Positions 14,264 to 47,662 of a DNA stretch of 64,000 nt are shown here, piece by piece. The first letter of the stretch is position 1; each line of letters begins with the position of its first letter. The position numbers and the translations under genes were made by a program. The notes beneath the pieces are model-generated. The model did not search any database. It saw only the letters and a program-made list of their open reading frames with translations, and was not told where the DNA came from. This stretch comes from Flavobacteriaceae bacterium (lineage in GTDB: Bacteria > Bacteroidota > Bacteroidia > Flavobacteriales > Flavobacteriaceae): positions 9,075 through 73,074 of the forward strand of contig CBFIFD010000007.1 of the NCBI GenBank assembly GCA_965661835.1, read 5' to 3'.

Positions 14264-14269
14264 ACGGCC

Positions 14270-22225: not shown

Positions 22226-24628
22226 ATGCGTTTCGTCGTTTATCTATTGAGCCTTATTTACTGTTGTTTTGCGTCAGCGCAAACCCTAACTGTATTAGAC
22301 CGTAAATCAAATGAGCCTATAGTTCATGCAAGCCTATTAGATACTGTGAGCAACGCCTATACTTGGACTGACTTCGAAGGCAAAGCGAGTTTCGAAAATC
22401 TCTCAAAAGAAGCCTTTTTATCAATTCAAGCCTTAGGTTACGAAGGCCGAGCATTAAGCCTAAAACAGTTGAGTGCTCATAATTATCTTTTGTTGCTGGA
22501 CGCTAGCAATACAGAGCTGGATCAAGTCGTTGTTTCAGCCACTAAATGGCGGCAAGCGCGAGACAAAAGTCCCTTGAAAGTCGTCAGCCTCAAGCCTGCT
22601 GATATTGCTCTTCAAAATCCACAAACTACAGCCGATCTCATCGGAAATTCCGGAGTAGTTTTTATTCAAAAGAGTCAGCAAGGTGGCGGAAGTCCAATGA
22701 TTAGGGGATTCGCGGCCAATCGCTTGATTTATACCGTAGATGGTGTGCGCATGAACAACGCCATCTTTAGAGGCGGGAACATACAAAACGTCATTTCATT
22801 GGATGCGCTGTCCTTACAAAACGCAGAGGTGCTTTTGGGACCAGATGCTGTAGTTTATGGGAGTGATGCCATCGGCGGGGTGATGAGTTTTGAGACCCTA
22901 GGGCCACGGTACGCCAAGGACGAACAAGTTTCAGTTTCAGCACGGGGACTCACGCGTACAGCCTCGGCAAATTTTGAACGAACCGCTCATGCAGACCTCC
23001 AGCTGGGATCTAAAAAATGGGCCGTTACCAGTAGTTTTACAAGAACTAGTTTTGGAGATTTACGCCAAGGGAATAATGGCCCTGACGACTATTTAAGGCC
23101 TTATTATGTCAGTCAATTCAGCGGACAAGACTTGATCGTTCCTAACCCTAACCCTAACCGTCAAGCGCCCTCTGGTTATGGTCAAAGTAACTTTATGCAA
23201 AAGGTGTTTTTTCGGCCGAATTCTAAATGGGATTTCAGTTTGGCCTACCACCACTCCGAAACCTCTGCATTTAGCAGATACGACAGGCAATTGAGAATTG
23301 TAAATGACTTGCCGCAATACGGTCAATGGGATTATGGACCACAAAAGTGGACGATGAATCAATTCACGGCCAATCATACAAAAGTCCGTGGGATATTCTC
23401 CGAAATGACCTTGAGGCTGGCAGAGCAAAATTTTCAAGAAAGTCGCATCACTAGAGCCTTTAATGACCCCATACAGCTGCGCCGATCTGAGGATGTTGTC
23501 GCTTATTCAGCCAATCTCGATTTACGTAAATCGATCAGTACCAAAGGGGAATTATTTTATGGTATTGAATGGGTATTGAATCAAGTAAATTCAATAGGCG
23601 TTGAAACCAATATCGATAACAATACAAGTGCAGCTGGTCCCGCACGATATCCAAAATCAGATTGGACATCTTATGCCATTTACCTCTCCTATCAACATCA
23701 ATGGAATTCCAAATTAATGACTCAGGGCGGACTGCGCTACAATGGTATCGGCCTTGATGCACAATTCGATACGCGCTTTTATCCGCTACCATTTGATAAC
23801 GCCAAACTCGATACAGAGGCGGTTACCGGAAGTATTGGCCTAGTTTATCAACCCTCTTCTCTTTGGAATTTCAGGGCAAACGTGGCTACGGCATTTAGAG
23901 CCCCTAACGTCGATGATATCGGTAAAATATTTGATTCAGAGCCTGGCTCAGTTGTGGTGCCTAACCCTGATTTAGTTCCTGAATACGCGATAAGTTGGGA
24001 TTTTGGTGTCGCACACATGCTCCACAAAAAATTAAAACTTGATTTCAGTGGCTACTTCACTCAACTCGACAATGCACTTATGCGCCGTGATTTCACCTTG
24101 AATGGTGACACAGAGATTATCTATGATGGTGTTTTAAGTCGTGTTCAGGCCATACAAAATGCAGCACAGTCACGAGTTTATGGAATACACACCGGTGTAG
24201 AACTAAAACTTCCTTCTGGCTTTGCACTCACCTCCGATCTCAACTGGCAACGTGGTACGGAGGAAATGGAAGACGGAACAAGCAGTCCCGCACGGCACGC
24301 CGCCCCATGGTTTGGTGCCACACGACTCTGGTTTCGCGCCGAGAATCTAGTGATTCAAGGCTATTCGCAATACAGTGGAGGGCTTAGTTATGATAAATTA
24401 GCTATCGAAGAACAATCAAAAACAGATATCTATGCCCTTGATGCTCAAAATAGGCCATATGCCCCTGGTTGGCAAACCTTTAATGTCAAAGCTCAATATT
24501 CACTAGACGCTCATATCGACCTCATCGCGGGTATTGAAAATATTACCGATCAGCGTTATCGAACCTATAGTTCGGGTATTTCAGCCGCTGGGCGTAATCT
24601 AATTCTGGCACTTCGGGCACAAATTTAA
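22226..24628 (+). CDS. TonB-dependent receptor
   Basis: 800 aa. Signal peptide (..CCFASAQ), carboxypeptidase-regulatory-like N domain, plug motifs (GGGSPMIRGF, VDGVRMNN, YGSDAIGGV), and barrel motifs FRAPN...NPDLVPE. Confidence 0.85.
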   Translation: MRFVVYLLSLIYCCFASAQTLTVLDRKSNEPIVHASLLDTVSNAYTWTDFEGKASFENLSKEAFLSIQALGYEGRALSLKQLSAHNYLLLLDASNTELDQVVVSATKWRQARDKSPLKVVSLKPADIALQNPQTTADLIGNSGVVFIQKSQQGGGSPMIRGFAANRLIYTVDGVRMNNAIFRGGNIQNVISLDALSLQNAEVLLGPDAVVYGSDAIGGVMSFETLGPRYAKDEQVSVSARGLTRTASANFERTAHADLQLGSKKWAVTSSFTRTSFGDLRQGNNGPDDYLRPYYVSQFSGQDLIVPNPNPNRQAPSGYGQSNFMQKVFFRPNSKWDFSLAYHHSETSAFSRYDRQLRIVNDLPQYGQWDYGPQKWTMNQFTANHTKVRGIFSEMTLRLAEQNFQESRITRAFNDPIQLRRSEDVVAYSANLDLRKSISTKGELFYGIEWVLNQVNSIGVETNIDNNTSAAGPARYPKSDWTSYAIYLSYQHQWNSKLMTQGGLRYNGIGLDAQFDTRFYPLPFDNAKLDTEAVTGSIGLVYQPSSLWNFRANVATAFRAPNVDDIGKIFDSEPGSVVVPNPDLVPEYAISWDFGVAHMLHKKLKLDFSGYFTQLDNALMRRDFTLNGDTEIIYDGVLSRVQAIQNAAQSRVYGIHTGVELKLPSGFALTSDLNWQRGTEEMEDGTSSPARHAAPWFGATRLWFRAENLVIQGYSQYSGGLSYDKLAIEEQSKTDIYALDAQNRPYAPGWQTFNVKAQYSLDAHIDLIAGIENITDQRYRTYSSGISAAGRNLILALRAQI

Positions 24629-24647
24629 TTTCAATGCTTATTTTAGG

Positions 24648-26078
24648 GTGATGAAAAAACTGATCCCATTAGCTTTAGGTCCCATAATAGCTGGGGCAAT
24701 TCTATTGCTCCCAGAGCCGCTTTTTAATCCATTAATGGATAAAATATTTGCTGGAAGTTTATGGATGGTGATCTGGTGGATCACCGAAGCGGTCTCCATT
24801 TCAATTACGGCGCTTTTGCCGATTGTTTTATTTCCGCTACTTGGAATCAATTCGATTGGTCAAATTACCGTTCATTATGCCAATCCCATAGTATTTCTAT
24901 TTTTTGGAGGATTTGTGATTGCTCTGGCTCTGGAAAAAGTAGCCCTTCACAAACGAATGGCGCTTCATATATTAAAGCTAACGGGGCCACGCGCCAATGG
25001 TGTCGTATTTGGATTTATGTTGGCTACGGCACTGCTTTCAATGTGGATTTCTAATACTGCCAGCACGGTAGTTATGCTCCCTATGGCCCTTTCTGTATAT
25101 GCCTTAGTCAAACAAAGAACGCGACAAAACAAGAAAAAACTCAAGCGCTTTGCCCTGAGTCTCATGCTCGGTATTGCTGCGGCTGCTAATATCGGAGGAA
25201 TGGCAACATTAATTGGGACCCCGCCAAACAGTGTCATGTTGGCCTTTTTAAATAAGCAGTACCAAATAGACATTGGATTTTTTCAATGGATGACTTTTGG
25301 GGTCCCGCTTGCGGGACTACTGTTATTGATCGCTTACTGGATCATCGTACGATTGACCTATCCAAGCGGCCTTGGATTATTGGATAGTGCACACGAGATT
25401 ATTGATGCCGAACTCCAAAATCTTGGCCCAATAAAACGTAAAGAAAGAGCAGTGCTCACTCTATTTTTGCTGACCGTTACAGGATGGGTCCTCAGAGGAC
25501 AAATCAATGAGTGGTGGCCCTCGTTAGCCTTAACAGATACACATATTGCGATGCTTGGCGCTTTGGCACTTTTTACCATTCCGGTAAGTCAAGGAAAAAA
25601 GCCCTGCGTGCTACAGTGGGAGGACACGGCAAAACTCCCATGGGGGATTTTAATCTTATTTGGTGGTGGGCTCGCTCTTGCCAATACCCTTGCGCAAGGT
25701 GGCATTATCGATGCAGTTCAAGTCTTTATCAGTCATCAAAATCAGTGGTCTGCATTGCTGATTCTCATTGCTTTAGTCACCTTGGTTTTATTTCTAACAG
25801 AGCTTATGAGCAATGTAGCCTTGGTCACTGTATTTTTGCCTGTAATTGCGGGGATTGCTTTAGGTTTGGAACAACCCTTATTAACCATGGTCATCCCTAT
25901 TACTTTGGCCTCGAGTTGTGCTTTTATGTTGCCTATGGCAACTCCGCCTAATGCTATTGTTTTTGCCAGTGGTCATATCAGTGTGGCCCAAATGGTGCGA
26001 TCAGGATTTTGGTTGAATCTAATGTGTTTGTTGGTGATTTTACTTTTGAACCAATTCTTATTGCCCTATTTTTTCTAA
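24648..26078 (+). CDS. DASS/SLC13 family anion (di/tricarboxylate or sulfate):Na+ symporter
   Basis: 476 aa polytopic membrane protein. Two hairpin-tip motifs (WISNTAST and LMSNVAL) typical of DASS carriers. GTG/ATG start at 24648/24651. Confidence 0.8.
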   Translation: MMKKLIPLALGPIIAGAILLLPEPLFNPLMDKIFAGSLWMVIWWITEAVSISITALLPIVLFPLLGINSIGQITVHYANPIVFLFFGGFVIALALEKVALHKRMALHILKLTGPRANGVVFGFMLATALLSMWISNTASTVVMLPMALSVYALVKQRTRQNKKKLKRFALSLMLGIAAAANIGGMATLIGTPPNSVMLAFLNKQYQIDIGFFQWMTFGVPLAGLLLLIAYWIIVRLTYPSGLGLLDSAHEIIDAELQNLGPIKRKERAVLTLFLLTVTGWVLRGQINEWWPSLALTDTHIAMLGALALFTIPVSQGKKPCVLQWEDTAKLPWGILILFGGGLALANTLAQGGIIDAVQVFISHQNQWSALLILIALVTLVLFLTELMSNVALVTVFLPVIAGIALGLEQPLLTMVIPITLASSCAFMLPMATPPNAIVFASGHISVAQMVRSGFWLNLMCLLVILLLNQFLLPYFF

Positions 26079-37323: not shown

Positions 37324-38301
37324 ATGCCTTTAGTTGATGCCCAATATCATCCCATAGGATGGTTTAAAAACGGCCATTTTTCAACGATTTATTCGGCTAA
37401 AATTAGACGCGCCCCTAAACTCAAGTTTCAGAGAGATCGATTGAGTTTGGATGATGGTGATTTTATAGATTTAGATTGGTCCTACAGTAAAAGTAAGTCT
37501 GGCGAGCAGCCAAAGTATGTGGTTATTTTGTTGCACGGACTCGAAGGGAATACTCAGCGGTCCTACATGCGTGGCCAAGCTGCCGCGCTGATCGCTTCGG
37601 GGTTTGATGTATGTGCCATGAATTTTCGCGGTTGCTCTGGAACCGAAAATCTCAAGCTGCAGAGCTACAACGCAGGAAAAATAGAAGATTTAGATCAAGT
37701 TGTGAGGCGTGTAGTAAAACTAAATCAATACAGCCGTATTTATGCGGTTGGATTCAGTCTCGGCGGGAGTCTTTTACTCAATTATCTCGGCACAAAACAA
37801 GGGGATTATCAGCATATTTATGCAGCGGCGGCCGTATCGACCCCGCTCGACTTGAGCGCATCGATTCGGCGGTTGGCTCGTTGGGACAATCAGGCGTATC
37901 AATGGGTGTTTTTATCCACACTCAAATCAAAATATCGACAAAAGCAAAAGGCATACCCTTTGAAATTATCTTTCGATGCGCCGCGCGCGATGAAATCGCT
38001 AAAAGACTTTGACAATCTTTATACCGCTCCAGTGCACGGCTATCTTAATGCCGAGGATTATTACTCAAAAAACAGCCCGATTAACACTCTTGAACACATC
38101 GAGGCGCCGACACTGATTCTTAATGCTCAAAACGATTCTTTTCTCTCTGAGGCCTGTTTGCCAATAAGTATTGCGCAAAGTTCAAAAATAATTTATCTTG
38201 AAGCCCCAAAATACGGAGGTCACGTCGGGTTTCATGATCCCTCGGGGCTGTATTATAACGAAACTAGAATAAGTGAATTTTTTAAAGCCCTATCGGCTTA
38301 G
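37324..38301 (+). CDS. Alpha/beta hydrolase (YheT/ABHD1-3-like)
   Basis: 325 aa. LLHGLEGN oxyanion region, GFSLGGS nucleophile elbow, and C-terminal GGHVGF. Confidence 0.8.
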   Translation: MPLVDAQYHPIGWFKNGHFSTIYSAKIRRAPKLKFQRDRLSLDDGDFIDLDWSYSKSKSGEQPKYVVILLHGLEGNTQRSYMRGQAAALIASGFDVCAMNFRGCSGTENLKLQSYNAGKIEDLDQVVRRVVKLNQYSRIYAVGFSLGGSLLLNYLGTKQGDYQHIYAAAAVSTPLDLSASIRRLARWDNQAYQWVFLSTLKSKYRQKQKAYPLKLSFDAPRAMKSLKDFDNLYTAPVHGYLNAEDYYSKNSPINTLEHIEAPTLILNAQNDSFLSEACLPISIAQSSKIIYLEAPKYGGHVGFHDPSGLYYNETRISEFFKALSA

Positions 38302-38314
38302 ATAACAAGATCCT

Positions 38315-38815
38315 ATGAAAAATTATTTGATCGCTACAGTATTGGCTTTGATTTTGAGTAGTTGCGGCGAAACAAAAAAAGAAGAAAAACCAGCCCTAAA
38401 AATAGGCCAAACCACTACTAAAACTGTGACTCCATCTGGAACAAAGCTAGCGCTAACGGGCAATGATATGATGCAGTATGACAAAAAAGAATTGATGGCT
38501 AAAGCTGGAGAAAAAATAACGCTGACCCTTCGTCATGTTGGCCAACTCGAGAAGAGAGTCATGGGTCATAATTTTGTTTTGCTCAAGGCGGGCACCAATA
38601 TTACCGGTTTTGCCAATGAGGCGGCATCGGCTGGAGAGGCTGCTGATTGGATTCCCAATGATGGCGCACAGGTCATTGCACACACCAAGATGCTCGGTGG
38701 AGGACAAACCGATGTCATCACTTTTGAGGCCCCCGAACCTGGTACTTACGACTATATCTGTAGTTTTCCAGGACACTCAGGGATGATGCGCGGTACGTTG
38801 ACTGTAACGCCTTAA
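38315..38815 (+). CDS. Lipid-anchored azurin (type-1 copper cupredoxin)
   Basis: 166 aa. Lipobox LILSSCG plus a Lys/Thr-rich linker. Azurin core GNDMMQYDKKEL..., VMGHNFVL (His ligand) and YICSFPGHSGMMRGTL (Cys-His-Met ligands). Confidence 0.8.
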   Translation: MKNYLIATVLALILSSCGETKKEEKPALKIGQTTTKTVTPSGTKLALTGNDMMQYDKKELMAKAGEKITLTLRHVGQLEKRVMGHNFVLLKAGTNITGFANEAASAGEAADWIPNDGAQVIAHTKMLGGGQTDVITFEAPEPGTYDYICSFPGHSGMMRGTLTVTP

Positions 38816-38860: not shown

Positions 38861-38881
38861 AACCCTCCTGTTTGGAGGGTT
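38861..38881. terminator. Bidirectional rho-independent terminator between azurin (+) and the GMC operon (-)
   Basis: Perfect 8-bp stem AACCCTCC/GGAGGGTT with a TGTTT loop. It is flanked by AAAAAAA on the left (a T-tract for the minus-strand transcript) and TCTTT on the right. Confidence 0.6.
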
Positions 38882-38907: not shown

Positions 38908-39600
38908 TTACAGGGACATAACTTTTCCGTTGCCCGCCTCTGAATTCGGGAGGCAGCCCTTGTATACTCCAGGGACTGGATCATACCATAAAAAGTTTTC
39001 TCCTATTTGCTGGGTTTGAGTCCAAGTCCAAATCGTCATGCTCCGCACTTCATGAATTAATGCGCTCGCCAGGACATCATCTGAGGCGGTCGCTTGAGGG
39101 TCTGATTTTAAGGCCTCACGATACGCCCAATATTCCTTTGACCATTGGTCTGCCTCAGCCTTATCTGCCTTAAAATAATGACTCAAAAGTGTATCGTAAG
39201 TCTCAACACTAGCTTTGTCAAAATCAGTTTGATGATCACGTTCTAAAACACGCTCTAGTGCGGCAAAACCCTTGCGAACTTGACTCTGCCTGGCAGAGGT
39301 AGAGTACTGGGTAAATTCATCTTCTAGAGCGGAAATTTGATCATCCGAAGGTAAGACCTGATCCCAGTACAAATCGATAAACTCATGTACTCCGACATCA
39401 ACGGCGCCGGGCGCCTGAGCATCTTTTGGTATGATCAAGCCAACCATTTCCTTTAATGCGTTTGCCTGTGTTGTTGATAAAAATGATGGGGTATACCCCG
39501 AGCCCGAGCCACAGCTTTGTAGCAGGCTAATGATGGCTGGTGTTGCCACTAAGGCACCACTGCCTAATCCTAAGTTCTTTAACGCTTGTCTTCTGTTCAT
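38908..39600 (-). CDS. Small Tat-signal subunit of a GMC flavoprotein dehydrogenase (gluconate 2-dehydrogenase subunit 3 family)
   Basis: 230 aa. NRRQALKNLGLGSGALVATPAIISLLQSC is a twin-arginine motif followed by a lipobox Cys. Its ATG shares one base with the GMC stop (TGATG). Confidence 0.7.
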   Translation of the reverse strand: MNRRQALKNLGLGSGALVATPAIISLLQSCGSGSGYTPSFLSTTQANALKEMVGLIIPKDAQAPGAVDVGVHEFIDLYWDQVLPSDDQISALEDEFTQYSTSARQSQVRKGFAALERVLERDHQTDFDKASVETYDTLLSHYFKADKAEADQWSKEYWAYREALKSDPQATASDDVLASALIHEVRSMTIWTWTQTQQIGENFLWYDPVPGVYKGCLPNSEAGNGKVMSL

Positions 39601-41297
39601 CAGGATTCCTTTTTAATTTGGTTTACAGCATGGTTTGCGGCTCTCGCGGTAAATGCCATGTAGGTCAAAGACGGATTCACACAACTCGCACTGGTCATGA
39701 ACGAACCATCGGTACAATATACATTAGGGACCATATGAATTTGGTTGTGTTCATTCAGTACTGAGGTTTTTGGATCTCTTCCCATACGTGCGGTTCCCAT
39801 CTCGTGAATGCCAAGTCCGGGAGCACCAGGGTCGTCCCATGGACGGATGTTCTTATATCCGGCACTCTCTAGCATCTCCATGGCTTGTTGCACCATGTCT
39901 TTTCGCATTTCCCACTCGTTTTCTTTCCACTCTACATCAAAGGTCACGGTAGGAAGGCCCCACTGATCTTTTTTGTCGTAGTCGAGTTCCATTTTATTTT
40001 CATGGTACGGTAAGCATTCGCCAAAGCCCATCAAAGTCATACTCCATTTACCTGGTTGACTGACTAGATCTTTCAGATCTTTTCCGTAACCTATTTCGGC
40101 AATCTGATCTCCATAATTTCCCCGAGACGCGCCACCCTGATAACCATAACCGCGCAAGAAATTTGATTGATCGGTGACCCCACCTATATTTCTAAATCGA
40201 GGAATATATATTCCGTTAGGACGACGACCCTTGAAATATTGATCTTCAAAACCGTCAACATCTGCAAAAGCACCGGCTTTAAAATGGTGGTCCATAATAT
40301 TGTGTCCTAATTCACCTGAGTCATTGCCCATTCCATTAGGGAATCGTTCACTCTTGGATTGAAGTAAAATACTCGCCGTAGCAATCGCCGAAGCGCACAA
40401 GAAAATTACCTTAGCATTAAACACGAGGTGCTCTCCTGTCTCGGTATCGATCACTTTTACTCCTGAAGCGCGTTGTGTATTGGGGTCGTAAATCACTTCA
40501 TGCACAATGGAGTTCGGGCGTAAGGTCATATTCCCGGTGCGCTCTGCAGCAGGTAAGGTCGAAGAAACGCTACTAAAATATCCTCCAAATGGACACCCGC
40601 GAATACAGCGACTGCGGTAAACGCAATTCGATCGCCCTTCATGGGCCTTATCTCCTGTCAGGTGTGCTGTTCTTCCGATGGTCAGTACACGGCCATCATC
40701 ATAATTTTTATCAATTTTTTCACGAAGATCACGTTCTGCACAATTGAGCTCCATGGGCGGCGAGAACACACCATCAGGCAACACTTCTTTGCCAAGGGCC
40801 TCTCCGCTTACCCCTATATACTCCTCCACTTTGTCGTACCACGGAGCGATGTCTGCATAACGCACTGGCCAATCCACTGCCACACCTTCTCTTTTGTTTG
40901 CCTCAAAGTCAATGTCACTCAAGCGATATGATTGACGCCCCCACATAATCGATCGGCCTCCCACGTGGTAGCCCCGAATCCAATCAAAGCGTTTTACTTC
41001 ATTGTACGGGTGAATAATATCATCAACAAACCAGTGGGCCGACTCATCACGAGTCGTATAACCGGTTCTATTTTGCTTGACCTGTCGCTTTTGTTGCTCA
41101 ACGGTGCGACGATTTTTAAAGTCAAAATCCCAAGGATCTTTATTAGCGGTAGGATAGTCTTCGATATGCTTTACCATGCGCCCACGCTCTAGAACTAGAG
41201 TTTTTAGGCCGTTTTCGCAAAGCTCTTTAGCGGCCCATCCGCCGCTAATCCCTGAACCCACGACGATTGCGTCGAATTGTTCGTTCGGTTTTGCCAT
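39600..41297 (-). CDS. GMC family FAD-dependent oxidoreductase (catalytic subunit, no signal peptide of its own)
   Basis: 565 aa. DAIVVGSGISGGWAAKEL FAD-binding motif and C-terminal GMC region (HEMGTARMG, DGS....S..NPSLT). Confidence 0.85.
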   Translation of the reverse strand: MAKPNEQFDAIVVGSGISGGWAAKELCENGLKTLVLERGRMVKHIEDYPTANKDPWDFDFKNRRTVEQQKRQVKQNRTGYTTRDESAHWFVDDIIHPYNEVKRFDWIRGYHVGGRSIMWGRQSYRLSDIDFEANKREGVAVDWPVRYADIAPWYDKVEEYIGVSGEALGKEVLPDGVFSPPMELNCAERDLREKIDKNYDDGRVLTIGRTAHLTGDKAHEGRSNCVYRSRCIRGCPFGGYFSSVSSTLPAAERTGNMTLRPNSIVHEVIYDPNTQRASGVKVIDTETGEHLVFNAKVIFLCASAIATASILLQSKSERFPNGMGNDSGELGHNIMDHHFKAGAFADVDGFEDQYFKGRRPNGIYIPRFRNIGGVTDQSNFLRGYGYQGGASRGNYGDQIAEIGYGKDLKDLVSQPGKWSMTLMGFGECLPYHENKMELDYDKKDQWGLPTVTFDVEWKENEWEMRKDMVQQAMEMLESAGYKNIRPWDDPGAPGLGIHEMGTARMGRDPKTSVLNEHNQIHMVPNVYCTDGSFMTSASCVNPSLTYMAFTARAANHAVNQIKKES

Positions 41298-41432
41298 ATT
41301 TCAGATTGTTTAATTGTTTGGTCTCGTCTTGCCATGAACAGATAGAGTGGTCCAAAAGCAAGTGTCCTAATTTCTTGTTTTTTTATTGATTAACCAAGTT
41401 CTTTATGAGGAATGAATTAATTTCGGTTAGCG

Positions 41433-41448
41433 AAAACGATTTCGTTTT
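41433..41448. promoter_or_regulatory. 7-2-7 inverted repeat AAAACGA-TT-TCGTTTT in the divergent GMC / TIM-barrel control region
   Basis: Read directly from the sequence. It lies about 100 nt upstream of the ATG at 41549 and about 135 nt upstream of the GMC ATG. Candidate operator only. Confidence 0.25.
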
Positions 41449-41548
41449 AAAATGAAACCCTCCTCGGACTCTATAAATCCGACTCCACAAAAAAAAATCA
41501 TTTATCTTAGAAGACCATTTATACAAACGACCGATTAAACACCCAAGC

Positions 41549-42508
41549 ATGACTCTAAGAAAACTTATGGCAATAGGCGCTACTTTTGCCCTTATCAGCT
41601 GTCAAAACAACCTTAAAAAACCTGAAGCAACGACCCCAGAGACCCCAAAACAAAATTTTGAGATTTCTTTAGCCCAATGGTCCATACACAGCAAAATACA
41701 CAACGGCACAATCGATCCAATGGATTTTGCATCCATCGCCAAGGAATTAGGCTATACAGGACTCGAATACGTCAGTAATTTGTATGTCGGTGAAGAGGTC
41801 AATTATCCCATGAAAGAACAAGGGCTAGACGCTGTATTGACTGAACTAAAACGCCGAAGTGATTCACTGGGCATGACTAATGTCTTAATTATGGTGGATG
41901 ATGTAGGTGACCTTTCGGTTGAAGACCAAGCACTCACCGCACAGGCTGTAGAAAATCATAAAATATGGGTCGATGCCGCGGCCTTTTTAGGCTGTCGTGC
42001 TATTCGGGTGAATCTATTTGGGACATCAAACCCAGAAGCATGGGTCAGGAGTTCAGTGCGCTCTTTAAAAGCACTGAGCACCTATGCCGCTGATAAAAAT
42101 ATCGCCATTCTGGTAGAAAATCACGGTGGCTTATCTAGCGACGGAAAACTACTCGCTCAAGTTATGAAGGAAGTCGCTATGGACAACTGTGGCACCTTGG
42201 TCGATTTTGGTAACTTTTGCGTGCGTCGTGAAAACGGTGAACGATGGGACGGGCCTTGTGTTCAGGAGTACGATCGCTATCAAGGCATAGAAGAGCTCAT
42301 GCCATATGCGCAAGGAGTATCCGCTAAATCCTATGCGTTTGACGATGAAGGGAACGAAACCACTATGGATTTTCCTAGAATACTTAACCTAGTCAAAGAC
42401 TCAGGTTTTTCAGGTTTTATCGGAGTAGAATTTGAAGGCGAGGTTGCTGATCCATTTCCCGGAATGGAGGCCACCAAATCTCTGATAGAAACCGTTCTGA
42501 TCAACTAA
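41549..42508 (+). CDS. Xylose-isomerase-like TIM-barrel protein (sugar phosphate isomerase/epimerase family), lipoprotein
   Basis: 319 aa. Lipobox FALISC. Family pattern around IRVNLFG and ILVENHGG. Confidence 0.75.
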   Translation: MTLRKLMAIGATFALISCQNNLKKPEATTPETPKQNFEISLAQWSIHSKIHNGTIDPMDFASIAKELGYTGLEYVSNLYVGEEVNYPMKEQGLDAVLTELKRRSDSLGMTNVLIMVDDVGDLSVEDQALTAQAVENHKIWVDAAAFLGCRAIRVNLFGTSNPEAWVRSSVRSLKALSTYAADKNIAILVENHGGLSSDGKLLAQVMKEVAMDNCGTLVDFGNFCVRRENGERWDGPCVQEYDRYQGIEELMPYAQGVSAKSYAFDDEGNETTMDFPRILNLVKDSGFSGFIGVEFEGEVADPFPGMEATKSLIETVLIN

Positions 42509-42580
42509 TGGTTCCGTAAGTTTATTTTGTAAAAAATAACGCTAATCAAAACAACATAACTCAACTTAATCACAACAACC

Positions 42581-43813
42581 ATGAAGACCACAACTCGATT
42601 TCAACTGTCATTTATGATGTTCCTCGAATTTTTTATTTGGGGAGGATGGTTCGTGACTATGGGCACCTTTTTAGGCAATAATTTAGGCGCTAGCGGTGCA
42701 GAAACGGCTATGGCCTATTCGACCCAATCTTGGGGCGCGATTATTGCTCCATTTATTATTGGGCTCATCGCTGACCGTTTTTTTAATGCAGAACGCATCC
42801 TTGGGGTCCTACATTTAATTGGGGCCTTTTTGATGTACCAAATGTACTTGTCTACCGATTTCGGAAGTTTTTATCCCTATGTCTTGGGGTACATGATCGG
42901 CTATATGCCGACACTCGCTCTGGTCAATTCAGTGTCCTTTAATCAAATGAAAGATCCTGCTAAAGATTTTTCCCTAATTCGTGTCTGGGGTACTATCGGT
43001 TGGATCGCCGCAGGTTTGGCCATTAGCTATATTTTCCATTGGGATCCGAATCCTGAGGTCGCCGGAGACAAAGGAATGTTACAAAACACCTTCTTAATGG
43101 TGTCCATTGCCTCAGCTGTGTTGGGTGTATTTAGTTTTACCTTACCTAAAACCCCACCTAAAGCAGATGACGGCTCAAAAATTACCGTAAGCGACATTTT
43201 GGGACTCGAAGCTCTGAAACTACTAAAAGACCGAAATTTTTTAGTGTTCTTTCTTTCTTCAGTACTGATCTGTGTGCCTCTGGCCTTCTATTATCAGCAC
43301 GCCAATCAATTTCTTTCAGAAATTGGTGTGGAAAATGCCACCGGCAAAATGACCATTGGACAAATTTCTGAAGTTCTGTTCATGCTGTTGTTGCCTTATT
43401 TTTTCAAAAAATTTGGGTTCAAAATGACCATTCTTGTCGGCATGCTCGCCTGGACAGTTCGATATTTATTATTTGCATATGGCGATGCAGGTGAAGGTGT
43501 CTTTATGCTGCTGATTGGAATTGCACTGCACGGCATCTGTTATGATTTCTTTTTTGTATCCGGACAAATTTACACCGACAGCAAGGCCGGCGAAAAAGTT
43601 AAAAGTGCTGCACAAGGATTAATCACCCTAGCGACCTATGGGGTTGGAATGCTCGGTGGTTTTTATATTGCCGGACTCATTACCGACGCCAATATCATTG
43701 CAGATGGTCATAATTGGACGGCGATATGGCAAATGCCAGCAATTTTTGCCGTAGTCGTATTTGTATTTTTTGCCGTACTATTCAAAAATGAATCCATTGA
43801 GTACAAGGAATAA
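42581..43813 (+). CDS. MFS transporter of the nucleoside:H+ symporter (NupG/XapB-like) family
   Basis: 410 aa with about 12 hydrophobic segments. N-terminus RFQLSFMMFLEFFIWGGWFVTMGTFL is typical of the family. Confidence 0.8.
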   Translation: MKTTTRFQLSFMMFLEFFIWGGWFVTMGTFLGNNLGASGAETAMAYSTQSWGAIIAPFIIGLIADRFFNAERILGVLHLIGAFLMYQMYLSTDFGSFYPYVLGYMIGYMPTLALVNSVSFNQMKDPAKDFSLIRVWGTIGWIAAGLAISYIFHWDPNPEVAGDKGMLQNTFLMVSIASAVLGVFSFTLPKTPPKADDGSKITVSDILGLEALKLLKDRNFLVFFLSSVLICVPLAFYYQHANQFLSEIGVENATGKMTIGQISEVLFMLLLPYFFKKFGFKMTILVGMLAWTVRYLLFAYGDAGEGVFMLLIGIALHGICYDFFFVSGQIYTDSKAGEKVKSAAQGLITLATYGVGMLGGFYIAGLITDANIIADGHNWTAIWQMPAIFAVVVFVFFAVLFKNESIEYKE

Positions 43814-43845
43814 TCGTATGTTAGATTGTTAGAAAAATTAATATT

Positions 43846-44979
43846 ATGAGTCGAAAAATTAAATGGGGCGTCCTTGGCGGTGGTGGTGATTCTTTAATCG
43901 GGGTGTTACACCGTGTGGCCGCCTCTATGTACGACGCGTACGCCCTTACAGGGGCTGTTTTTAACCCAGATTTTGCCCAAAACAAGGCCTTCGCCCAAGA
44001 AATCGGGATCCCATTGGACCGTATTTATCCTGATTTTGACACCATGGTCGAAGCAGAGCTGGCCTTACCTGAGCAAGAGCGTATACAGGTGTTTTCTGTG
44101 CTTACCCCGAACTTCCTCCATTTCCCGATGGCCAAAAAACTCATGGAAAGTGGCTTTCATGTGATTTGTGAAAAACCGATGACTATGACCCATGAGGAAG
44201 CTTTGATTTTGGAACAAATTCAAAAAGACAAAGGCGTCTTATTTGCATTAACCCATACTTACACAGGCTATCCCATGATTCGTCAAATGAAAGCCATGAT
44301 CAAAGATGGTGTCATTGGCGCCATTCAAAAAGTAGACGCTCAGTATTATCAGGGCTGGATTAATCCTATTATTCACGATCCACAGCAGCGCGCTTCAACT
44401 TGGCGTCTAGATCCAGCTAAATCTGGTATTAGCTGCTGTATGGGAGATATAGGGGTCCACGCTTATCAAATGCTTGAATACGTGACTAGTCAAAAGATTG
44501 AGTCGATTTTGGCGGACCTCAACCATTTGTATGAGGATAATCAAATGGACATAGACGGTACGGTACTCTTGCGCCTTGGCCAACATGTAAAAGGTGTTTT
44601 ACGAGCGAGTCAAATAGCTACCGCCGAAGAAAATAACTTTGCCCTGGCGATTTACGGTCGTGAGGGCGCCTTAAAATGGGCCCAAGAAAACCCAAACTAT
44701 TTGACGCTTTTAAAAGATGGGCAACCCGCGCAAATCCTCAAACCGGGTCACGATTACAATAGCGCCTTTTCTTTGGAAGGCACGAAACTCCCACCCGGTC
44801 ACCCAGAAGGCATCTTCGACGCCATGGGGAATATTTATCGGGGTATGGCTAAAGCTGTTCGTGGCGATTCGTTTACCGACGGGGAATTCCCCTCTATGGA
44901 AGACGGAGTGCGCGGTATGAAATTTATTGAAACAGCTGTTGCCTCACACCAGAAAGGCAATGTTTGGAAATCACTTTAA
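43846..44979 (+). CDS. Gfo/Idh/MocA family NAD(P)-dependent oxidoreductase (cytoplasmic)
   Basis: 377 aa. KWGVLGGGGDSLIG Rossmann N-terminus, EKPM motif (VICEKPMT), and no signal peptide. Confidence 0.85.
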   Translation: MSRKIKWGVLGGGGDSLIGVLHRVAASMYDAYALTGAVFNPDFAQNKAFAQEIGIPLDRIYPDFDTMVEAELALPEQERIQVFSVLTPNFLHFPMAKKLMESGFHVICEKPMTMTHEEALILEQIQKDKGVLFALTHTYTGYPMIRQMKAMIKDGVIGAIQKVDAQYYQGWINPIIHDPQQRASTWRLDPAKSGISCCMGDIGVHAYQMLEYVTSQKIESILADLNHLYEDNQMDIDGTVLLRLGQHVKGVLRASQIATAEENNFALAIYGREGALKWAQENPNYLTLLKDGQPAQILKPGHDYNSAFSLEGTKLPPGHPEGIFDAMGNIYRGMAKAVRGDSFTDGEFPSMEDGVRGMKFIETAVASHQKGNVWKSL

Positions 44980-44988
44980 ATAAGACAG

Positions 44989-46044
44989 ATGAAAACGATT
45001 AAAGGACCTGCAGTATTTTTGGCCCAATTCATGGACGATAAAGCGCCCTTCAACAGTCTTGATGGGCTGTGTCAGTGGGCCGCAGATCTCGGTTACAAGG
45101 GGATTCAAATTCCCACATGGGAATCGCGACTTATCGATTTAACCCTTGCGGGAGAAAGCAAAAACTACTGCGATGAGCTTCAGGGCAAAATTCGTTCCTA
45201 TGGACTCGAAATCACAGAGCTCTCCACTCATTTACAAGGACAACTCGTCGCTGTGCACCCAGCCTATGATTTAATGTTTGACAATTTTGCTCCAGACGAT
45301 TGTAAAAACAATCCGAAAAAACGTACTGAGTGGGCCCGAGCCCAATTAATGAGTGCCGCTAAGGCCAGTGGTCATCTGGGTCTCAAAGCCCATGCTACAT
45401 TCAGCGGTGCCTTGCTCTGGCACACATGGCACCCTTGGCCACAGCGTCCGGATGGCCTGGTTGAACTTGGTTTTGAGGAACTCGCGAAGCGGTGGATGCC
45501 TCTGCTCAATGAATTCCAAGACAACGGCGTGGCGGTCTGTTATGAAATTCATCCGGGAGAAGACCTACATGATGGCGTTACTTTTGAGCGCTTTTTGGCA
45601 GCTACTGGAAGTCACAAAGCAGTCAACATACTATATGACCCAAGTCATTTTGTCTTACAACAACTTGATTACTTAGCCTATATAGATCATTACCACGAAT
45701 TCATCAAAGCCTTCCACGTAAAGGATAGCGAGTTCAATCCCGACGGAAAACGCGGTGCTTTTGGGGGTTATGGCGACTGGAAGGATCGTGCCGGACGTTA
45801 TCGGTCCCTAGGCGATGGCCAAATTGATTATAAATCAGTGTTCAGTAAACTGACCGAATACGGTTGTGACGTCTGGGCGGTCATGGAATGGGAATGCGTT
45901 ATCAAAAGCCCAGAACAAGGGGCCAGAGAAGGCGCCAAATTCATTCAAGATCATATTATTGAGGCGACCCAAAAGCGATTTGATGATTTCGCGGGTGCAG
46001 AAATTGATCAAGAACGCCTCAAAAAAATATTGGGTATCAAATAA
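44989..46044 (+). CDS. Xylose-isomerase-like TIM-barrel protein (sugar phosphate isomerase/epimerase family, cytoplasmic)
   Basis: 351 aa with no signal peptide, starting 9 nt after the Gfo/Idh/MocA gene. Family pattern around YEIHPGE, YDPSHF and WAVMEWE. Confidence 0.8.
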   Translation: MKTIKGPAVFLAQFMDDKAPFNSLDGLCQWAADLGYKGIQIPTWESRLIDLTLAGESKNYCDELQGKIRSYGLEITELSTHLQGQLVAVHPAYDLMFDNFAPDDCKNNPKKRTEWARAQLMSAAKASGHLGLKAHATFSGALLWHTWHPWPQRPDGLVELGFEELAKRWMPLLNEFQDNGVAVCYEIHPGEDLHDGVTFERFLAATGSHKAVNILYDPSHFVLQQLDYLAYIDHYHEFIKAFHVKDSEFNPDGKRGAFGGYGDWKDRAGRYRSLGDGQIDYKSVFSKLTEYGCDVWAVMEWECVIKSPEQGAREGAKFIQDHIIEATQKRFDDFAGAEIDQERLKKILGIK

Positions 46045-46110
46045 TACAGGCTTACGGACCTCAAACCGTACCCAATAGAACTTGTGTAACGAACAAAATA
46101 AAAAACCAAA

Positions 46111-46902
46111 ATGACCAAATCTAACTATTTATTTATCAGCTTACTGGCTTTGATGCTGTCTTGCGGCAAAGGATCCCAGCCTTCAGCGGCTCAGGAATCG
46201 TCAGGGTCATCAGAAGAACCGACGAATCCCGAAGAAACTGAATTTTGGACACCCGTCCCTAATAAAGTTACCCCCTATGGGCAAAACGGAGTGCCGAGTG
46301 ATGCTATTGTTCTTTTTGACGGAAGTAATCTCGACCAGTGGATAAGCGCGGTAGACAGCACAGCTGCAAAATGGGCCATTAATCCTGATGGAAGCATGAC
46401 TGTTGTGGACGGAACCGGTGATATCCAAACCAAAGAAAATTTTGGCAGCATTCAGCTTCATGTGGAATGGCGCAGTAATCCACAAAATATAGCCCCTGGA
46501 CAGGCCAGAAGCAACAGCGGCGTTTATCTTCAAAATCGTTATGAAGTACAGGTTTTAGACAACAACGATAATCCGACCTATGTCAATGGTATGGTTGGAT
46601 CGATCTACAAACAATCCCCTCCATTGGTTATGGCTTCTGTTCCAACGGGGTCTTGGAATCGTTACGACATTATTTACCATGCTCCAGAATTTGACGCTCA
46701 GGGAGCGATGACAAAGGGGCCCATCATGACCGTGCTCAACAACGGTGTCCTGATTCAAGATCATTTTGAACTCAAAGGGACCACCGAGTACATTGGCTGG
46801 CCCACAGTAAGTGCCCATGGGCCTGGACCTGTTAAGCTTCAAGACCATGCGGACCAAAGCGGCGTATCTTATCGCAATGTCTGGGTCAGACTATTGGATT
46901 AA
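46111..46902 (+). CDS. DUF1080 / 3-keto-disaccharide hydrolase family lipoprotein
   Basis: 263 aa. Lipobox LMLSCG plus a Ser/Glu/Pro linker. LFDGSNLDQW, NSGVYLQNRYEVQVLD and VKLQDHADQSGVSYRNVWV motifs. Confidence 0.8.
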   Translation: MTKSNYLFISLLALMLSCGKGSQPSAAQESSGSSEEPTNPEETEFWTPVPNKVTPYGQNGVPSDAIVLFDGSNLDQWISAVDSTAAKWAINPDGSMTVVDGTGDIQTKENFGSIQLHVEWRSNPQNIAPGQARSNSGVYLQNRYEVQVLDNNDNPTYVNGMVGSIYKQSPPLVMASVPTGSWNRYDIIYHAPEFDAQGAMTKGPIMTVLNNGVLIQDHFELKGTTEYIGWPTVSAHGPGPVKLQDHADQSGVSYRNVWVRLLD

Positions 46903-46921
46903 CTAATGTAATATCTGAATT

Positions 46922-47662
46922 ATGAAATATTTTATCGCCTTAACCTTGGTAACGATCATTTCCGTTTCGTGCCAAAACTCTAAAAATGGGCCAAATAAGG
47001 CCAAAGCAGTGCCCGAACAAGAAACAGTGACAACAGACCAGTGGCTCACCCTTTTTGATGGGACTAATTTTGACCATTGGCGTGGCTATTTGTCCGATAC
47101 CATGCCGGATTCTTGGACGATTCAAGATAGTGCCATGGTCTTTACTCCAGGAGAAAAAGGAGGGCAAAATATCATCACCAAAGACTTATTTTACAATTTT
47201 GAACTTTCCCTAGAGTGGAAGATTGCCCCGGGAGGCAATAGTGGTATATTTTGGGGGATAATGGAAGACGCTGCCTATCCAGAAGCCTATCAGTCTGGTC
47301 CTGAAATTCAGGTGTTGGATAATGAATTACACCCAGACGCAGCTCATGGTCAAGGTACCCACACCGCAGGATCGTTATACGATATGGTCGCGCCCTCAGC
47401 CGATCATACCAATCCTGCTGGGTCCTGGAATCACTGTGTCCTGCACGTTGACCATAGGATTAATCAAGGCATAGTTTACATGAACGGACATCAAATTGTA
47501 GAATTTCCACTTGATGGGCCTCAATGGGATGACATGGTTGCCCAATCTAAGTTCGCGAACTGGCCGGTTTTTGGAAAATCGCCTAAGGGCTATATTGGAC
47601 TGCAAGATCACGGAGATCAAGTATCCTACCGCAAAATAATGGTCAGACACTTGATCAATTAA
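46922..47662 (+). CDS. DUF1080 / 3-keto-disaccharide hydrolase family lipoprotein (paralog)
   Basis: 246 aa. Lipobox ISVSC. LFDGTNFDHW, GGNSGIFWG, EIQVLDN and IGLQDHGDQVSYRKIMV motifs. Confidence 0.8.
   Translation: MKYFIALTLVTIISVSCQNSKNGPNKAKAVPEQETVTTDQWLTLFDGTNFDHWRGYLSDTMPDSWTIQDSAMVFTPGEKGGQNIITKDLFYNFELSLEWKIAPGGNSGIFWGIMEDAAYPEAYQSGPEIQVLDNELHPDAAHGQGTHTAGSLYDMVAPSADHTNPAGSWNHCVLHVDHRINQGIVYMNGHQIVEFPLDGPQWDDMVAQSKFANWPVFGKSPKGYIGLQDHGDQVSYRKIMVRHLIN

Follow-up and report, generated by a model that had tools for sequence, protein, structure and literature searches.

What do the eight adjacent genes at positions 38908–47662 of the 64,000-nt stretch of flavobacterial DNA analysed here (the window) accomplish together? 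An initial annotation had proposed that they could oxidise a glycoside in the periplasm, cleave or hydrate the keto-intermediate there, and import and reduce or isomerise the product. We found all eight open reading frames at these positions, and ORF boundaries, Pfam matches and N-termini agreed with the gene families and signal peptides assigned before; signal peptides and lipoboxes were judged by reading the N-termini of the translations. The locus and its immediate surroundings are as follows.

38315–38815, plus strand: lipoprotein azurin (TIGR02695, PF00127), outside the coordinates of the initial annotation
38861–38881: hairpin AACCCTCC-TGTTT-GGAGGGTT, between convergent stop codons
38908–39600, minus strand: small "hitchhiker" subunit with Tat signal and lipobox (PF13618, E = 5e-18)
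39600–41297, minus strand: FAD GMC catalytic subunit with 3Fe-4S motif, predicted glycoside 3-dehydrogenase (PF00732, PF05199)
41298–41548: divergent promoter region with palindrome AAAACGATTTCGTTTT at 41433–41448
41549–42508, plus strand: TIM1, periplasmic lipoprotein TIM barrel, predicted 3-keto-glycoside lyase or keto-sugar isomerase (PF01261)
42581–43813, plus strand: NupG-type MFS transporter (PF03825, E = 1e-116, 390 bits)
43846–44979, plus strand: cytoplasmic Gfo/Idh/MocA oxidoreductase (Gfo), predicted NAD(P)H 3-keto-glucose reductase (PF01408, PF22725, PF02894)
44989–46044, plus strand: TIM2, cytoplasmic TIM barrel, by homology a 2-hydroxy-3-keto-glucal hydratase (PF01261)
46111–46902, plus strand: DUF1080-A lipoprotein, second subfamily (PF06439, E = 5e-37)
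46922–47662, plus strand: DUF1080-B lipoprotein, predicted 3-keto-alpha-glycoside 1,2-lyase and glucal hydratase (PF06439, E = 2e-42)

All ORFs of the locus have an assignment, and no gap between genes exceeds 72 nt except at the promoter region; the 9 nt reported between Gfo and TIM2 lie at 44980–44988. Housekeeping genes surround the locus, and inspection of its neighbours revealed neither a SusC/SusD pair nor a glycoside hydrolase or regulator, in line with the initial annotation. For the regulator this holds within the window, although the palindrome in the promoter region is CG-centred and resembles a LacI operator. Related CG-centred palindromes occur in other loci of this type (L007, L008, L054, L068, L021, L026 and L064), and a LacI-family gene adjoins the small subunit in locus L063.

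We consider it likely that the locus encodes a non-hydrolytic 3-keto route, with oxidation, elimination, hydration and reduction split across the inner membrane. This reading draws on gene content, localisation signals, homology to solved or named enzymes, conserved catalytic and cofactor motifs, and co-clustering across taxa. The co-conservation that the initial annotation had put forward as a check was found. Among 69 species-level related loci with full flanks, anchored on TIM2, Gfo was present in 68, GMC in 64, at least one DUF1080 gene in 62, TIM1 and the small subunit in 57 each and the MFS gene in 50. All seven families occurred together in 38/69, and the arrangement is far beyond chance. 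The cluster is conserved in over 20 genera of flavobacteria, and nearly all marine Flavobacteriaceae have it; the extra Tat-exported TIM barrel of the closest relatives is absent from the window. Clustering of these families extends to Hymenobacter (identities of 55% for GMC, 58% for MFS, 64% for TIM2 and 47% for DUF1080-A) and to Pseudoalteromonas, where an unrelated MFS takes the transporter role and the other families are kept. The pairing of Gfo and hydratase genes recurs in Pseudoalteromonas, Croceicoccus, Rhizobium and Hymenobacter, and the periplasmic and cytoplasmic sets share one operon across phyla.

The first step would take place in the periplasm. The small subunit begins MNRRQALK...LLQSC, a twin-arginine motif followed by a lipobox, and the GMC protein starts straight at its GxGxxG FAD motif and has no signal peptide; the former would carry the FAD/3Fe-4S enzyme across the membrane. 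Judging by the TGATG overlap of the GMC stop and small-subunit start, the small subunit is translationally coupled to GMC. The GMC motif C225-x5-C231-x3-C235 is spaced like the cluster ligands C212/C218/C222 of BcGDH, and 83 of 85 GMC homologues from related loci have C-x5-C-x3-C, as does the enzyme of Pseudoalteromonas. Together, the two proteins show the characteristic features of a dehydrogenase complex of the periplasm. Burkholderia cepacia glucose dehydrogenase, Gluconobacter fructose dehydrogenase and gluconate 2-dehydrogenase likewise join a C-x5-C-x3-C GMC protein to a Tat hitchhiker subunit, but they possess a membrane-bound triheme cytochrome c subunit that is lacking here, and their substrates and regiochemistry differ from the role predicted for this locus (PMC6719666). 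The best PDB matches of GMC were the fructose dehydrogenase large subunit (E = 3e-37) and FAD-GDH alpha (E = 5e-33); these nearest solved relatives, at about 30% identity, act on fructose C5 or glucose C1. Gene context suggests that GMC would instead oxidise the C3 hydroxyl of the non-reducing sugar in small glycosides and disaccharides, the presumed natural substrates.

GMC would hand its electrons to a small redox protein with a lipid anchor, in this locus probably azurin rather than cytochrome c. The azurin ORF, which adjoins the small-subunit gene, scored 113.9 bits against TIGR02695 (cutoff 105.1), and its lipobox LSSC and copper ligands GH...C-x4-H-x3-M can be read in the sequence. No ORF with a CxxCH motif, the mark of a c-type cytochrome, was found in the 64-kb window. 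Azurin or a monoheme cytochrome c occupies the same slot in 22 of 57 related loci, and these alternatives have an N-terminal tether and upstream DNA in common; azurin homologues adjoined the small-subunit/GMC pair in 6/6 sampled. Cytochrome c lies within the operon in Aquimarina (L012) and Hymenobacter, and in R. radiobacter a monoheme cytochrome c is used by glucoside 3-dehydrogenase (PMC9915066). The one unusual detail of the locus is azurin where sister loci have a monoheme cytochrome c. The azurin gene, convergent with that of the small subunit, comes after the gene of a cytoplasmic alpha/beta-hydrolase and therefore belongs to a separate transcription unit. Since a carrier gene is missing nearby in the other 35 of 57 loci, much of its adjacency could be due to inherited gene order. 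The hairpin at 38861–38881 is likely a bidirectional terminator; it was read directly from the sequence and is absent from the output of the consensus scan.

Release of the aglycone by elimination, which turns the 3-keto-glycoside into 2-hydroxy-3-keto-glucal, would fall to the lipoprotein lyases: DUF1080-B, probably DUF1080-A and possibly TIM1. The lipoboxes of the two DUF1080 proteins read ...MLSC and ...SVSC. DUF1080-B matched 8RR2, 8TDA, 9FBE and 8V31 at E of about 1e-39 and keeps 8/8 active-site residues of BT2 (E103, N134, E164, Q166, Y190, K245, Q273 and H275). For BT2 and AL2, 3-keto-alpha-glucoside lyase and glucal hydratase activities have been demonstrated (PMC8121099; bioRxiv 10.1101/2024.03.25.586180). 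DUF1080-A (best PDB match 4QHZ, E = 6e-66) is 30% identical to DUF1080-B and retains the N, E-x-Q, Y and Q-x-H positions, with the Lys lost. The role of TIM1 (lipobox ...ALISC) appears to be the least certain part of the locus. Its AF2 model (pLDDT 91), searched with Foldseek, matched 4OVX best (45% identity, function unknown), then the catalytic subunits of C-glycoside deglycosidases (E = 1e-14 to 1e-11) and then sugar epimerases. The likeness to C-glycoside lyases is only remote, and epimerases are about equally similar. TIM1 has no detectable kinship to AtOGE or BT1/AL1, and 8BVK was absent from its sequence and fold matches.

The DUF1080 enzymes may hydrate part of the glucal to 3-keto-glucose in the periplasm, and the MFS transporter would import 2-hydroxy-3-keto-glucal and/or 3-keto-glucose. 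Neither Gfo nor TIM2 has a signal peptide. TIM2 aligned end to end with 8RO4, named 2-hydroxy-3-keto-glucal hydratase (E = 4.8e-160; about 70% identity, read off the alignment), and is a close homologue, predicted to have that activity; we take the 8RO4 enzyme to be AtHYD. TIM2 would thus hydrate imported glucal, and Gfo (best PDB match 3V5N, E = 2e-81) would use NAD(P)H to reduce 3-keto-glucose, yielding glucose. If the DUF1080 proteins already hydrate in the periplasm, there would seem to be some redundancy with a hydratase in the cytoplasm.

The 8RO4 homology, BT2 residues and GMC/Tat pair support the initially proposed order of periplasmic oxidation, cleavage, import and reduction, but not the claim that the pathway is undescribed. 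Reportedly, Kastner et al. 2024 (Angew. Chem. e202410681) describe the GlycDH/AtOGE/AtHYD/Gfo operon of Agrobacterium tumefaciens, and Arellano 2010 the Caulobacter crescentus lacABC cluster. The same gene set is present in A. tumefaciens (Bitter et al. 2023, PMC10628242) and around Caulobacter lacABC (PMC9007349; PMC8121099). The A. tumefaciens operon has the FAD-GMC dehydrogenase with its Tat subunit, two TIM barrels of the xylose-isomerase-like type, a Gfo reductase and the four-step chemistry in common with our locus; AtOGE, AtHYD, Gfo and NADH convert 3-keto-phlorizin into glucose in vitro (PMC10628242). In contrast, TIM1 is not AtOGE-like, and our locus adds two DUF1080 lipoproteins and the NupG-type MFS, has lipoproteins for all periplasmic parts and adjoins azurin instead of cytochrome c. 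Caulobacter lacABC is surrounded by the same families, two DUF1080 proteins and a transporter, and shows fitness phenotypes on lactose, raffinose and salicin; similar clusters were noted in Bacteroidetes, those of Pedobacter and Echinicola have growth phenotypes on glycosides, and these, with Algoriphagus and Indibacter, are close known systems (PMC9007349; PMC8121099). The likeness to LacABC is one of gene families, and its cytochrome c component LacC has no counterpart in the window. B. thetaiotaomicron BT2156-2160 and Alistipes AL1-5 resemble our locus in their periplasmic 3-keto chemistry, in having a TIM-barrel lyase and in a DUF1080 lyase/hydratase whose active-site residues are the same, but there oxidation is the work of a Gfo enzyme that is exported via Tat, holds its NAD tightly and is not linked to respiration (PMC8121099; bioRxiv 10.1101/2024.03.25.586180). 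Here Gfo is cytoplasmic (32 against the BT_2158 family model, cutoff 750), and the predicted oxidant is a respiratory FAD/3Fe-4S dehydrogenase. DgpA/DgpBC, CarA/CarBC and LgdA/LgdB employ the same enzyme superfamilies and oxidation-elimination logic, but are wholly cytoplasmic, and our locus has no beta subunit gene.

We weighed three other readings. The periplasmic enzyme could be a free-sugar, polyol or inositol dehydrogenase, with the cytoplasmic pair handling an imported keto-sugar or inosose and no glycosidic cleavage. The best solved GMC relatives fit this, as do weak matches of TIM2 and Gfo to IolE and IolG, but these scores fall far below cutoff (51 vs 290 and 47 vs 355), and two DUF1080 proteins with lyase residues are co-conserved in the locus. 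TIM2 is moreover a close full-length homologue of a glucal hydratase, and glucal forms solely via elimination from a 3-keto-glycoside (PMC10628242); we regard this reading as improbable.

Gfo/TIM pairs oxidise and cleave intracellularly in the DgpA/DgpBC and LgdA/LgdB systems. With this precedent and the strong PF03825 match, the transporter might import intact nucleosides or glycosides for cleavage inside, the periplasmic set being a separate system. However, TIGR00889 scored under its cutoff (370 vs 446), the levoglucosan dehydrogenase (LgdA) model gave 82 against 650, and AtHYD is inactive on 3-keto-phlorizin (PMC10628242). The transporter swap in Pseudoalteromonas and the shared operon also argue against intact import, which we find more doubtful still. 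Least probable is that the locus is specialised for C-glycosides or some other narrow class of substrates and is not a broad system for scavenging O-glycosides. DfgA, DgpC, CarB and CGD catalytic subunits are the nearest characterised structural neighbours of TIM1, and GlycDH also oxidises C-glucosides (PMC10628242), but TIM1 is 15–22% identical to those subunits, and a DgpB/CarC-type beta subunit gene would not fit in, as all ORFs are assigned and the gaps are short. The housekeeping surroundings and near-universal occurrence, together with phenotypes of homologous clusters on ordinary disaccharides (PMC9007349; PMC8121099), likewise favour the broad 3-keto route. The locus is thus likely a marine flavobacterium's copy of a described pathway, one that splits glycosides by oxidising the sugar and not by hydrolysing the bond.

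ORF calls and a Pfam search recovered eight ORFs with the boundaries and Pfam domains that the initial annotation had given them; an azurin gene lies outside the interval that it had covered.

38315-38815, plus strand: azurin
38908-39600, minus strand: small subunit of the dehydrogenase
39600-41297, minus strand: GMC, the FAD dehydrogenase catalytic subunit
41549-42508, plus strand: TIM1, a TIM-barrel protein
42581-43813, plus strand: NupG-type MFS transporter
43846-44979, plus strand: Gfo oxidoreductase
44989-46044, plus strand: TIM2, a second TIM-barrel protein
46111-46902, plus strand: DUF1080-A
46922-47662, plus strand: DUF1080-B

Translations bore out the localisation signals claimed for these proteins. 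The small subunit, a PF13618 match, begins MNRRQALK...LLQSC, which combines a twin-arginine motif with a lipobox. GMC has its FAD-binding GxGxxG motif right at the protein start and no signal peptide. TIM1, DUF1080-A and DUF1080-B carry the lipoboxes of lipoproteins, and neither Gfo nor TIM2 has a signal peptide. The GMC stop overlaps the small-subunit start (TGATG), the six plus-strand genes are spaced by 9-72 nt (9 nt between Gfo and TIM2), and a 251-nt intergenic region separates this set from the divergent GMC/small-subunit pair. As also claimed, the neighbouring genes include no SusC/SusD pair, glycoside hydrolase or regulator; they are housekeeping genes. G+C content is even along the window (42-47%), and an Rfam gathering scan of the whole window gave zero matches. 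The source is an uncultured marine member of the Flavobacteriaceae; marine metagenome contigs carry GMC genes identical to that of the window, which also encodes PorZ and BatD. Elsewhere in the window, a DUF1800 gene adjoins a DUF1501 gene (12797-15892), and a TonB-dependent receptor gene without a SusD partner is followed by one for a Na+/sulfate-type (DASS) symporter (22226-26078, about 13 kb from the locus).

We compared this arrangement with characterized systems. In A. tumefaciens, GlycDH, a GMC flavoenzyme with a Tat partner, oxidizes glucosides at C3. AtOGE, an eliminase with a TIM-barrel fold, then splits the product into the aglycone and 2-hydroxy-3-keto-glucal. Hydration of this glucal falls to AtHYD, another TIM barrel, and reduction of 3-keto-glucose to a Gfo enzyme that uses NADH; in combination, the last three enzymes converted 3-keto-phlorizin to glucose (PMC10628242). 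This published chemistry fits the gene anatomy and supports the mechanism initially proposed, in which periplasmic oxidation and cleavage are followed by import and cytoplasmic processing. Oxidation and elimination would be carried out in the periplasm by lipid-anchored proteins, whereas the hydratase and reductase steps would be cytoplasmic, so that the MFS transporter would have to carry glucal and/or 3-keto-glucose across the membrane. We infer both the C3 regiochemistry of this GMC and the substrate range; algal disaccharides, glucosides and osmolyte glycosides are suggested as marine substrate candidates.

The further claim that this combination of genes was undescribed did not stand, as Caulobacter LacABC and related clusters had already been reported (PMC9007349, PMC8121099). 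The Caulobacter lacABC cluster genes are important for growth on lactose, with related raffinose and salicin phenotypes, and clusters of LacA with DUF1080 occur in Algoriphagus, Indibacter and Pedobacter (PMC9007349). Liu et al. noted that BT2156-2159 homologues cluster with LacABC in Caulobacter, and that homologues of this kind are important when Pedobacter and Echinicola catabolise disaccharides and glycosides (PMC8121099). Given these descriptions, the locus is a further case of a known pathway and therefore opens no new mechanism. Like systems of the GlycDH/LacABC type, the window encodes an FAD GMC dehydrogenase that reaches the periplasm together with its Tat small subunit, and an AtHYD-type hydratase TIM barrel (TIM2); unlike them, it lacks a dedicated c-type cytochrome (LacC or monoheme CYTc). 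The lyase set and transporter of the Agrobacterium operon also differ from those of the window. The B. thetaiotaomicron system uses a periplasmic NAD-bound Gfo, whereas the window has a respiratory FAD dehydrogenase, and the Gfo of the BT2156-2160/AL type is Tat-exported, whereas the window's Gfo is signal-less.

TIM2 matched PDB entry 8RO4, deposited as a 2-hydroxy-3-keto-glucal hydratase, from end to end (E = 4.8e-160, about 70% identity), and its prediction as a hydratase is the strongest single assignment of the locus. DUF1080-B matched DUF1080 enzymes of B. thetaiotaomicron and Alistipes that have solved structures (E about 1e-39). Nasseri et al. named Glu103, Asn134, Glu164, Gln166, Tyr190, Lys245, Gln273 and His275 in the B. 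thetaiotaomicron 3-keto enzyme BT2. When we mapped these residues through an alignment with 8TDA, whose chain numbering is the native numbering minus 9, DUF1080-B kept all eight. The lyase that such a pathway requires, either a DUF1080 protein of the BT2 type or a TIM barrel of the AtOGE/BT1 type, is thus predicted to be supplied by DUF1080-B. DUF1080-A belongs to another subfamily, with 4QHZ as its best match and 30% identity to DUF1080-B; it keeps most BT2 positions, the lysine not among them.

The nearest matches to Gfo are unnamed oxidoreductases from rhizobia (3V5N, E = 2e-81). Three curated models, for levoglucosan dehydrogenase, for inositol dehydrogenase and for the BT_2158 glycoside 3-dehydrogenase, score it far under their cutoffs. 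It scored 32 bits against NF058561, the model for Tat-exported Gfo glycoside 3-dehydrogenases (cutoff 750). Its 82 bits against the LgdA equivalog NF052479 (cutoff 650) set it apart from the LgdA/LgdB levoglucosan pathway. We predict that it is a 3-keto-glucose reductase encoded with the hydratase.

TIM1 is the weak point of the functional reading. Its model (pLDDT 91) found the uncharacterised planctomycete protein 4OVX as its best fold match, followed by catalytic subunits of C-glycoside deglycosidases (15-22% identity) and then sugar epimerases. In sequence it is unrelated to TIM2. We rejected it as an orthologue of AtOGE or of the B. thetaiotaomicron and Alistipes enzymes BT1/AL1, with zero sequence matches and with 8BVK outside the top 50 fold matches. 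DgpBC/CarBC enzymes pair a TIM-barrel catalytic subunit with a small beta subunit, whereas the window offers only the remote fold match of TIM1; the locus leaves neither an unassigned ORF nor a gap with room for a beta-subunit gene. In the closest relatives, the small subunit is followed immediately by an additional Tat-exported TIM barrel (L007:3073-4008, L008, L011, L016, L018:234-1211 and others; L numbers denote related loci gathered with TIM2 as anchor). It too was rejected as an AtOGE orthologue, being hydroxypyruvate-isomerase-like or epimerase-like, and it is absent from the window, where 92 nt separate the azurin and small-subunit stop codons.

We then analyzed the conservation of the locus. 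A TIM2 scan with one genome per species matched at least 599 species, and the best 80 of these loci were almost all from Flavobacteriaceae. Among the 69 of these 80 with enough flanking sequence for a tblastn comparison, Gfo was found in 68, GMC in 64, at least one DUF1080 in 62, TIM1 and the small subunit in 57 each, the NupG-type MFS in 50 and all seven families in 38, usually in the gene order of the window. The pairing of Gfo with the hydratase gene held in 68/69 loci and in four other taxa. A homologous cluster, all on one strand, is present on a plasmid of Hymenobacter volaticus (Cytophagales; NZ_CP095062, L096 479-13390). It encodes GMC (55% identity to the window), the small subunit, a NupG-type MFS (58%), Gfo, a hydratase-type TIM barrel (64% to TIM2), a c-type cytochrome, two Tat-exported TIM barrels and a DUF1080 protein (47% to DUF1080-A). 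Pseudoalteromonas sp. CF6-2 (Gammaproteobacteria) has an AraC regulator, Gfo, hydratase-type TIM barrel, MFS, DUF1080, GMC, small subunit and TIM barrel, and Croceicoccus has Gfo, hydratase-type TIM barrel, small subunit and GMC, with a GH3 gene adjoining. The families thus cluster across Flavobacteriaceae, Hymenobacter, Pseudoalteromonas and Croceicoccus, so the genes are co-conserved within and outside the family, in line with the initial annotation.

Several variants accompanied this pattern. L018 (8145-9848) and 15 other loci have a further GMC paralogue, which shares about 65% identity and lacks a small subunit of its own; in Maribacter, Flagellimonas, Zobellia and Cellulophaga it separates Gfo from the hydratase gene, and in L018 ASCH-domain and DinB-family genes flank it. 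A reduced locus without TIM1 and MFS is found in a clade of uncultured Flavobacteriaceae (L015, L017, L022, L024, L043, L045); its small subunit and GMC form one side, its Gfo, hydratase and DUF1080 the other. In Hymenobacter, a GH65 phosphorylase gene and a SusD gene adjoin the cluster, and these neighbours hint that its substrates there may be alpha-glucosides of the kojibiose, trehalose or maltose type.

Near-universal in marine Flavobacteriaceae, the locus has housekeeping genes as neighbours and is not part of a polysaccharide utilisation locus. Because of this position and the lack of a CAZy glycoside hydrolase, the pathway would escape surveys of marine carbon turnover that rely on CAZymes.

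The divergent GMC/TIM1 promoter region contains the palindrome AAAACGATTTCGTTTT (41433-41448). Related CG-centred palindromes occupy the same place in L007 and L008 (CGAAAACGTTTTCG), L054, L068, L021, L026 and L064. The exact palindrome AAAACG..CGTTTT recurred in just 3 of 47 intergenic regions, and a looser search found CG-centred relatives in about 10 more. In L063, a LacI-family regulator gene adjoins the small subunit. The pattern is suggestive of a LacI-type repressor encoded elsewhere in the genome. A Sigma-70 promoter scan returned fewer sites than shuffled sequence, a result that is uninformative for Bacteroidota. Between the convergent azurin and small-subunit genes lies a GC-rich 8-bp hairpin with flanking A and T runs (38861-38881), a likely bidirectional terminator, which a consensus terminator scan did not pick up.

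GMC is closest to the catalytic subunits of fructose dehydrogenase and of the Burkholderia FAD glucose dehydrogenase. In the latter, three cysteines hold a 3Fe-4S cluster (PMC6719666). The same spacing (C212, C218 and C222 in BcGDH) is found in the window's GMC, C225-x5-C231-x3-C235, and the motif recurs in 83 of 85 GMC homologues of related loci. This motif argues that GMC is not an oxidase but a dehydrogenase built to pass its electrons on to a partner protein. Operons for the FADGDH/FDH complexes share the cysteine-rich motif but also encode a multihaem cytochrome c subunit, LacABC-type enzymes depend on cytochrome c (PMC8121099), and the partner of the glucoside 3-dehydrogenase from Rhizobium radiobacter is a monoheme cytochrome c (PMC9915066). 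By contrast, no ORF of the 64-kb window contains a CxxCH motif.

Directly past the small-subunit stop, and convergent with it, lies the azurin gene. Its product is a lipoprotein that scored 113.9 bits against TIGR02695 (cutoff 105.1) and has all the copper ligands (His, Cys, His and Met, in MGHNF and C-SFPG-H-SGM-M). Sister loci have a cytochrome c in the position that azurin takes in the window: within 2.6 kb of the small-subunit/GMC pair, 14 of the 57 related loci with sufficient flanks encode an azurin, and 8 encode a homologous monoheme cytochrome c. In one clade, the two types have about 1 kb of upstream DNA in common (72-77% identity) together with the first 135 nt of the gene, which encode a signal peptide and the tether CGPKKEKKKxFEYKRT; the redox domains that follow are unrelated. 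This alternation is a domain swap in place. In Aquimarina (L012), the cytochrome c gene leads a tightly packed operon that also holds GMC on the same strand, and a lipoprotein cytochrome c lies within the operon in Hymenobacter. Six of six sampled azurin homologues (57-66% identity) adjoin dehydrogenase genes. In all six sampled loci, however, azurin also follows a cytoplasmic alpha/beta-hydrolase (Hydrolase_4/Abhydrolase_1; 37324-38301 in the window, ending 13 nt before azurin), even where genes further upstream differ, so azurin sits in a different transcription unit from the dehydrogenase. This separate unit, the wider shared gene order in most loci and the 35 of 57 loci with no carrier gene nearby count against a dedicated role. 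That azurin is the physiological electron acceptor of the glycoside 3-dehydrogenase is thus possible, but on balance we doubt it. We are just as tentative about the broader proposal that, in this and some other marine Flavobacteriaceae, a lipid-anchored azurin has replaced in place the cytochrome c acceptor of an FAD/3Fe-4S glycoside 3-dehydrogenase.

A limited search of the literature returned nothing relevant on azurin together with GMC sugar dehydrogenases, which is a weak negative. If the proposal is true, this would be, as far as we know, the first case in this enzyme class of a sugar dehydrogenase coupled to a cupredoxin, and it would represent an iron-sparing swap in the style of plastocyanin and cytochrome c6 in heterotrophic marine carbohydrate catabolism. 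If functional, the exchange of azurin and cytochrome c would tie sugar oxidation in these bacteria to the availability of copper versus iron.
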